From NCBI RefSeq assembly GCF_056746865.1, contig NZ_CM163382.1: a DNA stretch of 64,000 nucleotides, one strand, 5' to 3'. The translations under genes and the position numbers were made by a program. Below the pieces are notes generated by a model. The model was not told where the DNA came from. It ran no database searches and saw only the letters and a list, made by a program, of their open reading frames with translations. Of the stretch, positions 5,157-9,321 are shown piece by piece; within the stretch, counting starts at the first letter, position 1; each line of letters starts with the position of its first letter.

Positions 5157-6416
5157 ATGACGGATTCAATTCCATCAGGTTACAAGCCGCTGACATGTGA
5201 CACGCTGCCGGGTTATCTCTCGTCCAGACTGACCCCTTCATGCGAACCGGGAGGGTTACCTGAAGAGTGGAAAGTTTCAGAAGTGGGGGACGGAAACCTG
5301 AACATGGTGTTTATCGTTGAGGGGACACATAAAACCATCATTGTAAAACAAGCTCTGCCCTGGCTTCGTGCCGGGGGCGAAGGATGGCCTTTATCTCTGA
5401 GCCGTGCGGGCTTTGAGTACAACGTCTTATGTCAGGAAGCCAAGTACGCGGGTCACACACTGATTCCGCAGGTCTATTTTTACGACCCGGAAATGGCGCT
5501 GTTTGCCATGGAGTATCTGACTCCTCACGTGATTCTGCGTAAGGAACTGATTAACGGTAAAAAATTCCCTAAACTAGCTGAAGATATCGGCAGATTTTTA
5601 GCACAGACTCTCTTCAATACGTCTGACATTGGCATGTCAGCAGAACAGAAAAAAGCGCTTACTGCCGAGTTCGCGTTGAATCATGAGCTGTGCAAAATTA
5701 CGGAAGATCTGATCTTCACAGAGCCCTATTACAACGCTGAACGGAATAACTGGACTTCTCCTGAGCTGGACGATGCCGTCCATAAGGCCTGGGCTGATGT
5801 AGAGATGATCCAGGTTGCCATGCGTTATAAGTACAAATTTATGACAGAAGCGCAGGCATTGTTACATGGCGACCTTCATTCAGGCTCAATCATGGTGACC
5901 GACACGGATACCAAAGTGATTGATCCGGAGTTCGGTTTCATGGGGCCAATGGCGTTTGATATCGGCAACTATATTGGCAACCTCCTGCTGGCGTACTTCT
6001 CACGCCCTGGGTGGGATGCGAATGAGCAACGTCGCGCTGACTATCAGGAATGGCTGCTTCAGCAGATTGTCCAAACCTGGTCCGTTTTCACCCGGGAGTT
6101 CCGCCAGCTCTGGGACAACAAAACACAGGGCGACGCGTGGTCGACAGAAATGTATCAACAGAACAGGGCCGCTCTTGAGGACGCACAGGATCAGTTTTTT
6201 GCCACGCTGCTTGAAGATTCCCTGGTGAATGCCGGCATGGAAATGAATCGCCGGATCATTGGTTTTGCTGGCGTTGCCGAGCTGAAACAGATTGAAAATA
6301 CAGAGCTTCGCGCAGGATGTGAACGACGTGCATTGACCATGGCGCGCGATCTTATCGTCAATGCCCGCCAGTTTAAAAATATGGATTCCGTCATCCAGTC
6401 TGCGAAGGTTAAGTAA
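5157..6416 (+). CDS. mtnK: 5-methylthioribose kinase (MtnK-type sugar kinase of the APH/choline-kinase-like fold)
   Basis: 419 aa; RBS AAGGAGA 7 nt upstream; catalytic-loop LLHGDLHSGSIMV and IDPEFGFMGPMAFDIG motifs characteristic of MtnK. Confidence 0.8.
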   Translation: MTDSIPSGYKPLTCDTLPGYLSSRLTPSCEPGGLPEEWKVSEVGDGNLNMVFIVEGTHKTIIVKQALPWLRAGGEGWPLSLSRAGFEYNVLCQEAKYAGHTLIPQVYFYDPEMALFAMEYLTPHVILRKELINGKKFPKLAEDIGRFLAQTLFNTSDIGMSAEQKKALTAEFALNHELCKITEDLIFTEPYYNAERNNWTSPELDDAVHKAWADVEMIQVAMRYKYKFMTEAQALLHGDLHSGSIMVTDTDTKVIDPEFGFMGPMAFDIGNYIGNLLLAYFSRPGWDANEQRRADYQEWLLQQIVQTWSVFTREFRQLWDNKTQGDAWSTEMYQQNRAALEDAQDQFFATLLEDSLVNAGMEMNRRIIGFAGVAELKQIENTELRAGCERRALTMARDLIVNARQFKNMDSVIQSAKVK

Positions 6417-6425
6417 GAGGTCATT

Positions 6426-7541
6426 ATGAATATTAAAGGTAAACACTATCGTACGGTCTGGGTTTCCGGGGATGGAAAAGCGGTAGAAATCATCGATCAG
6501 ACTAAGTTGCCTTTTAAGTTCGAGGTGGTGGCGCTTACCTCTGCGGAAATGGCCGCTACGGCTATTCAGGATATGTGGGTTCGTGGCGCTCCGCTTATTG
6601 GTGTCGTTGCAGCCTATGGCATCGCGCTGGGAATGAATCACGATGCCAGTGACATGGGTCTGCAGCGTTACTATGACCTTCTTATCAAAACCCGACCAAC
6701 GGCAATTAATCTCAAATGGGCCCTCGACAGGATGATAGACACACTGAAGGATCTCTGTGTATCAGAGCGCAAGGATGTGGCCTGGGCGCTGGCGGCAGAA
6801 ATTGCCGAGGAAGATGTCGCGTTGTGTGAACAAATTGGATTACATGGTGCAGAAGTCATCCGCGAAATAGCCCAGAAAAAACCGGCCGGGAGTGTGGTCA
6901 ATATCCTGACACATTGTAACGCAGGCTGGCTGGCGACTGTAGACTGGGGAACCGCGCTTTCTCCCATCTACAAAGCGCATGAAAACGGAATCCCTGTTCA
7001 CGTCTGGGTGGATGAAACGCGGCCACGTAATCAGGGCGGACTCACGGCATTTGAACTGGGCTCACACGGTATTCCTCACACCCTGATCGCCGACAACGCG
7101 GGTGGCCACCTGATGCAACACGGTGACGTTGATCTCTGCATTGTTGGGACCGATCGAACCACGGCCAGAGGGGATGTCTGTAATAAAATTGGTACCTATC
7201 TTAAGGCGCTGGCGGCCCATGATAACCATGTTCCCTTCTACGTCGCGTTACCTTCTCCCACTATTGACTGGACTATCGAGGACGGAAAAAGCATTCCGAT
7301 TGAGCAACGTGACGGAAAAGAGCAGTCCCATGTCTATGGGATAAACCCTCAGGGAGAATTGAGCTGGGTCAATACCGCCCCTGAAGGAACCCGTTGTGGG
7401 AACTACGCTTTCGACGTCACGCCTGCCCGATACATTACCGGCTTCATTACTGAGCGGGGAGTCTGTGCTGCCAGTAAGTCAGCGCTGGCGGATATGTTTG
7501 CTGACCTGAAGAGTAAAGCACTCCAGGGGGAACAGCATTAA
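6426..7541 (+). CDS. mtnA: S-methyl-5-thioribose-1-phosphate isomerase (MtnA, eIF-2B alpha/beta/delta-like family)
   Basis: 371 aa; 9 nt after mtnK; eIF2B-like fold motifs ([31 protein letters not shown]). Confidence 0.8.
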
Positions 7542-7571
7542 AACAGCGGCCATTGCTATTAAGGATCAGGA

Positions 7572-8213
7572 ATGGAACGGATTAAGTTAGCAGAAAAAAT
7601 CATTTCCACTTGTCGGGAAATGAATGCGTCAGGTCTTAATCAAGGAACATCAGGTAATGTGAGTGCCAGGTATACCGGTGGCATGTTGATTACGCCGAGT
7701 GGGATCGCTTATTCAAAGATGACGCCGGACATGATTGTCTTTGTAGACGATAAGGGAAAACCTGAAGCGGGTAAAATACCATCAAGTGAATGGTTAATTC
7801 ATCTGGCGTGTTATAAAGCCAGACCAGAATTGAATGCTGTCATACATACGCATGCGGTGAATTCCACGGCGGTGGCAATACATAATCATTCAATTCCGGC
7901 CATTCATTATATGGTGGCGGTATCGGGGACGGATCATATTCCCTGTATTCCCTATTATACCTTTGGCAGTCCTGAACTGGCCGACGGTGTATCTAAAGGA
8001 ATCAGAGAAAGTAAGTCCTTGCTGATGCAGCACCACGGTATGCTGGCCATGGACGTCACGCTGGAAAAGACGTTGTGGCTGGCGGGTGAAACCGAGACGC
8101 TGGCTGATTTATACATCAAATGTGGCGGATTACATCACGATGTTCCCGTGCTGTCTGAAGCCGAAATGACCATCGTCCTTGAAAAATTCAAAACGTATGG
8201 TTTGAAAGCGTAA
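7572..8213 (+). CDS. class II aldolase (FucA-like); candidate 5-methylthioribulose-1-P / 5-deoxyribulose-1-P aldolase
   Basis: 213 aa, very similar in length and sequence to L-fuculose-phosphate aldolase (MER.KLA..II.TC.EM...GLNQGTSGNVS..., HTH.. metal-binding histidines); directly follows mtnK-mtnA. Confidence 0.75.
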   Translation: MERIKLAEKIISTCREMNASGLNQGTSGNVSARYTGGMLITPSGIAYSKMTPDMIVFVDDKGKPEAGKIPSSEWLIHLACYKARPELNAVIHTHAVNSTAVAIHNHSIPAIHYMVAVSGTDHIPCIPYYTFGSPELADGVSKGIRESKSLLMQHHGMLAMDVTLEKTLWLAGETETLADLYIKCGGLHHDVPVLSEAEMTIVLEKFKTYGLKA

Positions 8214-8316
8214 TTACAGCTTTATTTTAATTAATAACATATGACAGCCATTCGCAGAATGGCTGCTATTCCCTCTGTCCACAACGATTGATTATAACTA
8301 CCACAAGGAGTTATTT

Positions 8317-9321
8317 ATGTTTATCGTGGAATCGTATGCTGTCGCCATAATAATGTGTTTTATTACCATGATTTGCTGGGGTTCATGGGCGAATACAACT
8401 AAACTTGTCAGCAATAAAAAATGGGAGTTCCCTCTATTCTATTGGGATTATTCAATTGGATTATTGCTGTGTTCTTTGTTATTTGCCTTCACGCTGGGTT
8501 CTATGGGCGAAGCCGGTCGCAGTTTTATACCTGATATTCAGCAGGCGAGCAGCAGTAGTCTGATGTCGGCAATACTGGCAGGGATTATCTTCAATATTTC
8601 CAATATTCTTCTGGTCGCTTCTATTAATCTTGCCGGTATGGCGGTAGCTTTTCCTGTGGGTGTGGGGCTGGCACTGGCTCTGGGTGTGATCACCACCTAT
8701 ATCGGCAATCCGCAGGGCGATCCGCTCATTCTGTTCCTCGGTGTCGTCTGCGTTGTGATCGCCATTATTTTTACCGCGATAGCCTATGGTCGTGTCACGC
8801 AGGAGGCGGATAAATCTCGCCGTAATAAAGGTCTCATTACTGCCATTCTGGCGGGTATCATCATGGGATGGTTTTTCCGCTTCCTGGCGGACTCCATGTC
8901 TGACAATTTCAGCCAGCCTGCCAGCGGTCTGATGACGCCTTACTCAGCACTTGTTCTGTTTGCCGTGGGGCTGTTTTTGTCGAACTTTGTCCTTAACAGG
9001 CTGGTCATGAAAAAACCTATTTCAGGAGAACCGGTCAACGGGAAAATGTATTTTTCCGGGAGTTTACGGGATCATGTTTGCGGCTGGCTGGGCGGTATGA
9101 TTTGGTGTGTCGGTCTGGCATTCAGTCTGATTGCGTCTGGTCAGGCGGGGTATGCCATTTCCTACGGTCTGGGACAGGGGGCCACAATGATTGCCGTGAT
9201 CTGGGGAGTCTTCATCTGGAGAGAATTTGCCAGTGCGCCAGCCGGAACCAATAAACTGCTGCTGACCATGTTTATTTCATACATTGTGGGTATTGTTCTT
9301 ATTATCGCCGCTAATCAATAA
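8317..9321 (+). CDS. integral membrane transporter, RhaT/GlcU-like sugar:H+ symporter (DMT superfamily)
   Basis: 334 aa, about 10 hydrophobic segments, C-terminal ..VLIIAANQ resembling the RhaT family; last gene of the mtn cluster; followed by a hairpin terminator. Confidence 0.6.
   Translation: MFIVESYAVAIIMCFITMICWGSWANTTKLVSNKKWEFPLFYWDYSIGLLLCSLLFAFTLGSMGEAGRSFIPDIQQASSSSLMSAILAGIIFNISNILLVASINLAGMAVAFPVGVGLALALGVITTYIGNPQGDPLILFLGVVCVVIAIIFTAIAYGRVTQEADKSRRNKGLITAILAGIIMGWFFRFLADSMSDNFSQPASGLMTPYSALVLFAVGLFLSNFVLNRLVMKKPISGEPVNGKMYFSGSLRDHVCGWLGGMIWCVGLAFSLIASGQAGYAISYGLGQGATMIAVIWGVFIWREFASAPAGTNKLLLTMFISYIVGIVLIIAANQ

Follow-up and report, generated by a model that had tools for sequence, protein, structure and literature searches.

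An mtnK-mtnA-ald2-permease locus nearly identical to the published DHAP shunt operon of Escherichia coli ATCC 25922

[quoted passage not shown] 2020 (Mol Microbiol 113:923; PMC7237333), cited here through the 2024 and 2025 papers described below. DHAP shunts of Rhodospirillum rubrum, Rhodopseudomonas palustris and Bacillus thuringiensis follow the same logic, in which a 5-deoxy- or 5-methylthio-pentose 1-phosphate is isomerised and a class II aldolase yields DHAP and an aldehyde (PMC10986504). The Rhodospirillum and Bacillus shunts serve sulfur salvage or detoxification, whereas the E. coli type provides carbon and energy and is catabolite-controlled; in the Rhodospirillum type, the phosphorylase MtnP stands in for a nucleosidase and a kinase (PMC10986504). 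The E. coli type was studied in strain ATCC 25922 by Huening et al. 2024 (PMC10986504), with deletion, complementation, growth assays on 5-deoxyribose (5dR), MTA and 5'-deoxyadenosine (5dAdo), and transfer to K-12, and by Huening et al. 2025 (PMC12632272), with analysis of operon structure, mapping of transcription start sites and deletion of mtnR. In ATCC 25922, mtnK, mtnA, ald2 and a permease gene form one operon (PMC12632272), which allows growth on 5dR, MTA and 5dAdo as carbon sources; both growth on 5dR and its genetic dependence on the locus were shown (PMC10986504). As already published, the pathway matters for the nutrition of extraintestinal pathogenic E. coli (ST131 among them) where glucose is scarce, for example in urine.

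We compared this operon with a locus in a 64,000-nucleotide stretch of DNA, referred to as the window. By blastn, window positions 4417 to 10900 shared 99.57% nucleotide identity with ATCC 25922 over 6.5 kb. The genes, their order, the spacers, the promoter region and the regulator were the same, as was the chromosomal neighbourhood (yjhF-yjhG-yjhH-yjhI). Eight amino-acid substitutions over the four operon proteins set the locus apart from ATCC 25922. The genes and the hairpins between them are as follows.

[quoted passage not shown]
6426 to 7541, + strand: mtnA, 5-methylthioribose-1-P / 5-deoxyribose-1-P isomerase, 371 aa; TIGR00512 equivalog, 411 bits (cut-off 279)
7572 to 8213, + strand: ald2, class II aldolase, FucA paralogue, 213 aa; PRK08087 subfamily, 365.6 bits (cut-off 264)
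8245 to 8265, + strand: stable hairpin with a 9-bp stem within the ald2-permease spacer, no U-tract after it
8317 to 9321, + strand: permease, 334 aa, probably of the GRP (glucose/ribose porter) family in the DMT superfamily; RefSeq 'GRP family sugar transporter'
9326 to 9349, no strand assigned: terminator-like hairpin, bidirectional, where the permease and mtnR genes converge; sequence kept in K-12
9362 to 10348, - strand: yjhU = mtnR, SorC/DeoR-type sugar-binding repressor, 328 aa, 100% identical to ATCC 25922 MtnR

All four + strand open reading frames start with ATG just 3' of a Shine-Dalgarno-like sequence, and RefSeq annotation of 100%-identical genomes places the four genes at identical boundaries. 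The co-directional arrangement with spacers of 9, 30 and 103 bp, described in a first-pass annotation of this DNA, agreed with the open reading frame list and the RefSeq calls, and the motifs LLHGDLHSGS and DPEFGF were located in the first protein as that annotation had stated. The folding energy of the 103-bp spacer was -19.6 kcal/mol (MFE; z = -3.0). In ATCC 25922, read depth is similar over all four operon genes (PMC12632272). A fifth, convergent gene, yjhU/mtnR, had gone unlisted in the first-pass annotation; it lies 40 bp from the permease gene, with the terminator-like hairpin inside this interval.

The genes that characterise an E. coli-type DHAP shunt operon are found here: an MtnK orthologue, an adjacent MtnA, an Ald2 with an intact site replacing MtnB, and a permease with a convergent MtnR by yjhF. 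The system is already known: it is the DHAP shunt operon published for extraintestinal pathogenic E. coli, as the first-pass annotation had expected when it matched the cluster to the DHAP shunt and called the pathway probably known. Details possibly useful to specialists are a permease remnant in K-12, a transporter swap in Vibrio, ribokinase-linked permease paralogues and weak conservation of the proposed MtnR operator.

The locus is very probably an E. coli-type DHAP shunt operon for the carbon and energy use of SAM by-products. The pathway scheme and the enzyme assignments are those given for ATCC 25922 (PMC10986504, PMC12632272), where the genetics was shown, and are transferred here by sequence identity. 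MTA and 5dAdo would be cleaved by the Pfs nucleosidase, encoded elsewhere, to 5-methylthioribose and 5dR, both of which may also be imported from outside. MtnK would phosphorylate these sugars at C1, MtnA would convert the 1-phosphate product to a 1-phospho-ribulose, and the FucA-like Ald2 would cleave the latter to DHAP and 2-methylthioacetaldehyde or acetaldehyde. Since DHAP enters central metabolism, the compounds would be sources of carbon and energy and not mainly of methionine or sulfur. Transcription would proceed mainly from the promoter P1, some 72 bp before mtnK, with MtnR (YjhU) repressing the operon when substrate is lacking and cAMP-CRP activating it when glucose is lacking.

The same three enzyme types perform detoxification or sulfur salvage in other bacteria (PMC10986504), and the cluster might mainly detoxify 5dAdo and 5dR, as in Bacillus thuringiensis, or salvage sulfur, as in Rhodospirillum rubrum, with carbon supply secondary. 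However, deletion of mtnK-mtnA-ald2 in ATCC 25922 left the sensitivity to MTA, 5dAdo and 5dR unchanged and caused no defect under sulfate limitation (PMC10986504), and CRP exerts catabolite control over the operon, which 5dR induces (PMC12632272). On these deletion and regulation data, we rejected detoxification or sulfur salvage as the main role, which we consider very unlikely.

Even less probable is that the locus belongs to the universal methionine salvage pathway of Klebsiella and Bacillus subtilis (MtnK, MtnA, MtnB, MtnC or MtnW/X, MtnD), although the first two enzymes, which open that pathway, are the same. The dehydratase, enolase-phosphatase and dioxygenase of that pathway are missing here: mtnB, mtnC (or mtnW/mtnX) and mtnD were not found among the annotated genes of a colinear, 100%-identical reference genome covering window positions 1 to 63696, in line with the first-pass annotation. 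The third gene instead encodes an aldolase close to FucA, with a weak match to the MtnB dehydratase profile (68.5 bits; cut-off 137). With an aldolase in the position of MtnB, carbon would leave the pathway as DHAP. ATCC 25922 recycles no significant share of the MTA sulfur, which builds up as 2-methylthioethanol (PMC10986504). Methionine salvage was rejected, being largely refuted by the genes missing from the window, the aldolase and the fate of the sulfur.

Curated profile searches upheld the four families proposed earlier (MtnK, MtnA, FucA-like aldolase, RhaT/GlcU-like permease). MtnK differed from its ATCC 25922 counterpart by one substitution, and MtnA and Ald2 by two residues each. Ald2 is a paralogue of FucA, not an orthologue. 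It shared 58.5% identity with E. coli FucA in a 212-residue alignment without gaps, and E. coli FucA (PDB 1FUA and related) is its best solved relative, of the same fold family. All Zn and catalytic residues are retained, and Ald2 keeps E73, H92, H94, H155, Y113, F131, F206 and Y209 of FucA. The FucA reaction, from a deoxy-ketose 1-phosphate to DHAP and an aldehyde, is analogous to the predicted cleavage by Ald2 of 5-deoxyribulose-1-P or 5-methylthioribulose-1-P to DHAP and acetaldehyde or 2-methylthioacetaldehyde. Unlike FucA, Ald2 scored under the cut-off of the fucA equivalog TIGR01086 (317.6 bits; cut-off 400.25), lies in an mtn context with none of fucI, fucK, fucP and fucR nearby, and is not fucose-induced. 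The first-pass annotation had held that a best match to a fuculose-pathway enzyme with canonical active-site residues would speak against a DHAP shunt. Ald2 is literally such a match, yet the interpretation stands because the near-identical ATCC 25922 operon genetically supports growth on 5dR. That aldolase and permease form a 6-deoxyhexose (fucose- or rhamnose-like) module with misleading mtnK and mtnA labels, as the retained FucA active site and the weak RhaT/GlcU similarity of the permease might suggest, is scarcely conceivable and was rejected on the published induction and growth data of the near-identical locus, with no fucI/fucK/rhaA/rhaB-type gene in the cluster, the aldolase and permease scores below their fucA and RhaT cut-offs, and a promoter that fucose and rhamnose do not induce (PMC12632272).

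The upstream part of the DHAP shunt locus was compared with the published promoter data. The relevant features are the following.

4417 to 5156, + strand: conserved upstream region of the operon, corresponding to about positions 61 to 799 of the ATCC 25922 '799-bp 5' UTR'; blastn homology starts at 4417
4939 to 4969 (approximate), + strand: published weak and constitutive transcription start P2, placed 188 bp before mtnK by the text (4969) and 218 bp by the figure legend (4939) of PMC12632272, mapped from the ATG at 5157
5056 to 5122, + strand: regulatory core of the main promoter P1, conserved in E. coli, Citrobacter, K. oxytoca and Providencia by cross-genus alignments
5078 to 5095, no strand assigned: semi-palindrome CAAATaattttacATTTG (CAAAT-N8-ATTTG), the published candidate MtnR operator, present in the window
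5105 to 5122, no strand assigned: palindrome AGTTGTCAcaTGACAAGT, a speculative alternative candidate MtnR operator

Many strains align from 61 to 799 of the 5' UTR in Dataset S2 of the published work. Upstream of 4417, ATCC 25922 carries a glycosyltransferase fragment, whereas the window contains a remnant of the cbtA toxin, interrupted by an IS21-family element. The IS21/prophage remnant had been taken earlier as a sign of horizontal acquisition. The IS21 element came in secondarily, is specific to the strain and has a target-site duplication, and the identical junction occurred in none of the 5,426 complete E. coli genomes; it therefore says nothing about how the operon arrived. The operon and mtnR adjoin yjhF at the end of the leuX island. 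A tRNA gene search of the window found none, so leuX itself lies outside it.

The P1 start was published at 72 bp before mtnK, which is 5085 here, and lacZ fusions bracket the promoter at -126 to -66, equivalent to 5031 to 5091 (PMC12632272). The 255-bp promoter fragment had two mismatches to ATCC 25922, both outside the conserved core. A consensus scan gave TTCAAA-18-AATAAT at 5056 to 5085 and GTGTCA-17-GATAAT at 5072 to 5100. The start at 5085 is not at the usual distance from either candidate -10 hexamer, so the mapping of promoter elements is approximate. The sigma-70 scan itself was uninformative, as its 8 promoter-like sites were not in excess of the 10.1 expected by chance. Activation by cAMP-CRP was shown in ATCC 25922 by crp deletion and EMSA, and the promoter responds to 5dR (PMC12632272). 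The top CRP-like 22-mer, at 5043 to 5064, lies a few bp from the published -35.5 site. The best 22-mers matched 7 of 10 core positions, a level reached by 55% of random 240-nt windows, so the consensus search gives no sequence-based confirmation of the CRP site.

The repressor role of MtnR was established in ATCC 25922 by deletion, complementation and lacZ fusions (PMC12632272). The protein belongs to the SorC / Bacillus-DeoR type, with an N-terminal HTH, a Sugar-bind domain and a sequence identical to that of the characterised MtnR; for the orthologues in Providencia and K. oxytoca, PF04198 (Sugar-bind) is annotated. Its score against NF053881 (210.6 bits) is under the equivalog cut-off of 420, and it is thus not DeoR itself. 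The published candidate MtnR operator is poorly conserved and is not kept in Klebsiella or Providencia: in an ungapped comparison, E. coli and Citrobacter sp. alone showed full symmetry of the semi-palindrome at 5078 to 5095, and K. oxytoca and Providencia kept 3 of 5 arm pairs. Although its sequence varies, the palindrome at 5105 to 5122 has 7 of 8 complementary arm pairs in E. coli, Citrobacter sp. and Providencia, but 3 of 8 in K. oxytoca. Five Enterobacterales promoters have the conserved block at 5056 to 5122 in common, and an unbiased 8-mer search was run against four Vibrio/Aliivibrio regulatory regions. Proteus MtnR homologues (58 to 61% identity) are unlinked to mtnK and were therefore left out. 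Ten 8-mers were shared with the four Vibrio/Aliivibrio regions (3.4 ± 4.4 in shuffles), and among 12 pairwise local alignments one beat all 300 shuffles and one more gave p ~0.02, neither involving E. coli. No significant operator motif common to the two groups could be defined from these regions.

The permease gave weak Pfam matches (PF07168, E = 1e-9; PF06800, E = 5.4e-6) and 34.6 bits against RhaT/GlcU TIGR00776, far under the cut-off of 319.6. These scores and the RefSeq name indicate a superfamily member but not a RhaT orthologue. In ATCC 25922, the permease gene is induced about 7.5 log2 along with mtnK, mtnA and ald2 (PMC12632272), and mtnK-mtnA-ald2 alone suffices for growth of K-12 on 5 mM 5dR, the permease being dispensable (PMC10986504). 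The five-gene arrangement is kept in Citrobacter, K. oxytoca and Providencia, which we counted towards an importer role. In Vibrio and Aliivibrio, an RbsB/C/A-like ABC importer and a FucU/RbsD-like protein replace the permease beside the same enzymes and regulator. Permease homologues of up to 72% identity adjoin PfkB ribokinase-like genes or genes for nucleoside hydrolase or ADP-ribosylglycohydrolase, and the closest paralogues adjoin ribokinase-like genes. Most likely, the permease is a pentofuranose-type importer that would improve the capture of external 5dR or methylthioribose at low concentration.

Genome comparison agreed with the earlier statement that K-12 has no mtnK or mtnA. K-12 retains 58 bp of the permease gene beside IS1F, and this remnant shows that the K-12 lineage lost the operon. 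We tentatively advance three predictions as a single joint proposition, although we lean slightly against all of it holding: that the permease is a dedicated high-affinity 5dR/methylthioribose importer from a ribose-permease lineage, interchangeable with the Vibrio ABC importer; that the true MtnR operator lies elsewhere in 5056 to 5122, e.g. the palindrome at 5105 to 5122, and is not CAAAT-N8-ATTTG; and that the 'widespread' orphan yjhU/mtnR seen in K-12-like strains was left behind by an IS1-associated operon deletion, not kept for another function. The full cluster was present in 1,076 of the 5,426 complete E. coli genomes.

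ORF calling resolved four co-directional genes, each starting with ATG and preceded by a Shine-Dalgarno-like sequence, and a fifth, convergent gene that the first-pass annotation had not included. The features of the region are listed below.

1734–4370 (boundaries ± 2 bp), IS21-family element with istA/istB, ISSso4-like, with a 7-bp direct duplication (CAGTCAC)
5078–5095, published candidate MtnR operator, CAAAT-N8-ATTTG, as found in the window
5157–6416, co-directional with the other three ORFs, ORF 1, MtnK
6426–7541, co-directional, ORF 2, MtnA
7572–8213, co-directional, ORF 3, Ald2 (class II aldolase)
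8245–8265, stable hairpin with a 9-bp stem and no U-tract, in the ald2-permease spacer
8317–9321, co-directional, ORF 4, permease
9326–9349, bidirectional terminator-like hairpin, within the 40 bp separating the permease gene from mtnR
9362–10348, minus strand, convergent, gene 5, yjhU/mtnR

RefSeq places the gene boundaries of identical genomes at the same positions, and these boundaries and the ORF calls confirmed the previously described four-gene cluster with spacers of 9, 30, and 103 bp. The 103-bp ald2-permease spacer had a minimum free energy of −19.6 kcal/mol (z = −3.0), and its hairpin might modulate how strongly the permease is expressed or how stable the mRNA is.

The encoded proteins were assigned by profile searches. 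The first exceeded the MtnK equivalog TIGR01767 cut-off (522.5 bits; cut-off 275) and contained both motifs noted earlier, LLHGDLHSGS and DPEFGF. For the second, the score against the MtnA equivalog TIGR00512 was 411 bits (cut-off 279). The third scored 365.6 bits against the L-fuculose-phosphate aldolase subfamily PRK08087 (cut-off 264), fell below the fucA equivalog cut-off (317.6 vs 400.25 bits), and matched the MtnB dehydratase profile weakly (68.5 bits vs a cut-off of 137). Its closest solved relative was E. coli FucA, with 58.5% identity over 212 residues without gaps. Ald2 retains the FucA residues E73, H92, H94, H155, Y113, F131, F206, and Y209, and the sole difference among the 13 residues compared was T43 to S. 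The fourth protein, named GRP family sugar transporter in RefSeq, showed weak Pfam matches to Ureide_permease and Sugar_transport (PF06800) and a very weak one to the RhaT/GlcU subfamily (34.6 bits; cut-off 319.6). The fifth was YjhU, a SorC/DeoR-type sugar-binding regulator.

A literature search identified two papers treating exactly this cluster in E. coli ATCC 25922 (PMC10986504, PMC12632272), and the locus of that strain was fetched by the coordinates in their Dataset S3. Window positions 4417–10900 aligned with the CHARACTERISED locus of ATCC 25922 at 99.568% identity over 6,484 bp (27 mismatches, 1 gap). MtnR was identical, and MtnK, MtnA, Ald2, and the permease differed by 1, 2, 2, and 3 residues, respectively. 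The enzyme substitutions are P329S in MtnK, E49D and T142A in MtnA, and I63K and F76I in Ald2. According to the supplementary methods, the study likewise takes the ATG of window position 5157 as the start codon of mtnK, and the published 255-bp promoter fragment has two differences in the window (5015 and 5047). In ATCC 25922, deletion of mtnK-mtnA-ald2 abolishes growth on 5-deoxyribose, 5′-methylthioadenosine, and 5′-deoxyadenosine, and K-12 grows on 5 mM 5-deoxyribose once these three genes alone are expressed; in E. coli, the pathway makes no significant contribution to sulfur salvage and does not serve for detoxification (PMC10986504). The DHAP-shunt interpretation is supported. The best match of the aldolase to FucA, with canonical residues, is literally an outcome that the first-pass annotation had counted against this interpretation; the DHAP-shunt reading still stands, because growth on the substrates above depends genetically on mtnK-mtnA-ald2 at the near-identical locus. 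The system is already known in detail, and the remaining points (permease substrate, MtnR operator and effector, history of gain and loss) are incremental.

The four genes form one operon induced about 7.5 log2-fold on 5-deoxyribose and repressed by YjhU, renamed MtnR; growth on 5-deoxyribose requires CRP, which binds the promoter fragment (PMC12632272). Transcription from the main promoter, P1, begins 72 bp upstream of mtnK; a second promoter, P2, located farther upstream, is weak and constitutive (PMC12632272). The distance of P2 from mtnK is given in that paper as 188 bp in the text and 218 bp in the legend of Fig. 5. On the window, the published P1 start (−72, position 5085) falls inside an AATAAT hexamer (5080–5085) and not about 7 nt 3′ of a −10 element, and it is off the usual spacing from both consensus-like −10 hexamers. 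A consensus scan of the promoter region returned no convincing CRP site. Because of this and the spacing mismatch, our mapping of promoter elements is approximate.

Cross-genus alignments revealed a conserved block at 5056–5122 among the Enterobacterales orthologues. By ungapped comparison, CAAAT-N8-ATTTG had all five arm pairs in E. coli and Citrobacter sp. and three of the five in K. oxytoca and Providencia, in which MtnR is 93% and 89% identical to that of E. coli, respectively. Seven of the eight arm pairs of a palindrome at 5105–5122 were retained in E. coli, Citrobacter sp., and Providencia, with one position altered on both arms such that pairing was preserved; the palindrome was degenerate in K. 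oxytoca. Neither an unbiased search for words common to the E. coli-type and Vibrio regulatory regions nor shuffle-controlled local alignments between them gave a significant result. The MtnR operator could not be defined from the cross-genus alignments, the word search, or the local alignments.

Of 5,426 complete E. coli genomes, 1,076 contained at least 80% of window 4300–10700, most with an identity of 99% or more; mtnR alone was found in 1,601. The window matched strain FDAARGOS_497 colinearly and at 100% identity apart from two insertions: the 2,637-bp IS21-family element, which that strain lacks, and an IS2 in its nanM, which is intact in the window (around 29405). The IS21-family element interrupts a cbtA toxin pseudogene of a CP4-like island remnant and lies 787 bp upstream of mtnK, beyond the mapped promoter region. 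Not one of the 5,426 complete genomes carried its exact junction, so the insertion is late and strain-specific; contrary to the earlier suggestion that it marks horizontal acquisition, it is uninformative on how the operon arrived. In other strains, ISEc12, ISEc23, and ISCro1 are found at different points upstream of mtnK.

The remaining annotated genes of the window include yjhF-I, sgc, yjhP-R, nan, fim, gntP, uxu, and yji. As the first-pass annotation had stated, mtnB, mtnC, and mtnD were absent from the genes annotated in the colinear reference genome, which covers window 1–63696. No tRNA gene lies in the window, placing leuX outside it. The rest is ordinary K-12-like backbone (sgc, yjhP-R with IS5, nan, fimB/E, fimA-H, gntP, uxuABR, yji, and mdtM).

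In K-12 RP437 (L002, 5903–5960), the end of IS1F directly abuts the final 58 bp of the permease gene, corresponding to window 9264–9321, followed by the same terminator hairpin as in the window and then yjhU. This remnant beside IS1F indicates that the K-12 lineage formerly had at least the permease gene and lost the operon. This junction recurred in 357 complete genomes, a set that includes many laboratory K-12 derivatives. It has been suggested that the orphan mtnR was kept to serve a different regulatory role (PMC12632272). Operon loss offers a simpler reason, and the two explanations are not mutually exclusive.

The five-gene arrangement was conserved in other genera, with protein identities of 95–99% in Citrobacter, 80–93% in K. 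oxytoca, and 78–89% in Providencia rettgeri. In ten Proteus species, MtnR homologues (58–62%) had no mtnK, mtnA, or ald2 within 7 kb. Four Vibrio/Aliivibrio genomes carried an MtnR orthologue (66–79% identity) linked to mtnK-mtnA-ald2. For V. marinisediminis (L023, 1–7969), all genes between mtnR and mtnK were read. They encode an RbsB/RbsC/RbsA-like ABC importer, whose matches reach the family level only and fall short of the equivalog cut-offs, together with a FucU/RbsD-like protein; they run in the same direction as the enzyme genes and divergently from mtnR. Compared with the E. coli cluster, the ABC importer thus replaces the GRP permease in the Vibrio/Aliivibrio arrangement, as represented by this locus. 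Permease homologues of 72% identity or less, about 60–72%, occurred in Aeromonas, Salmonella, Bacteroidota, KSB1, metagenomes, and others. These were not adjacent to mtn genes; they neighboured PfkB ribokinase-like kinases and were often also near a DeoR-PfkB fusion regulator, a nucleoside hydrolase, or an ADP-ribosylglycohydrolase, an arrangement that looks like an uncharacterised ribose-type uptake module. From the conserved five-gene arrangement, the Vibrio transporter swap, and the ribose-linked paralogues, we infer support for the earlier proposal that the permease imports a ribose-like pentose. The permease is dispensable for K-12 at 5 mM substrate (PMC10986504).

An Fe-dependent alcohol dehydrogenase gene lies immediately upstream of mtnK in K. 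oxytoca (L009, 2282–3382), and in Providencia the far side of mtnR carries genes for a TPP enzyme and an aldehyde dehydrogenase (L005, 9490–12644). These neighbouring enzymes may handle the aldehyde product.
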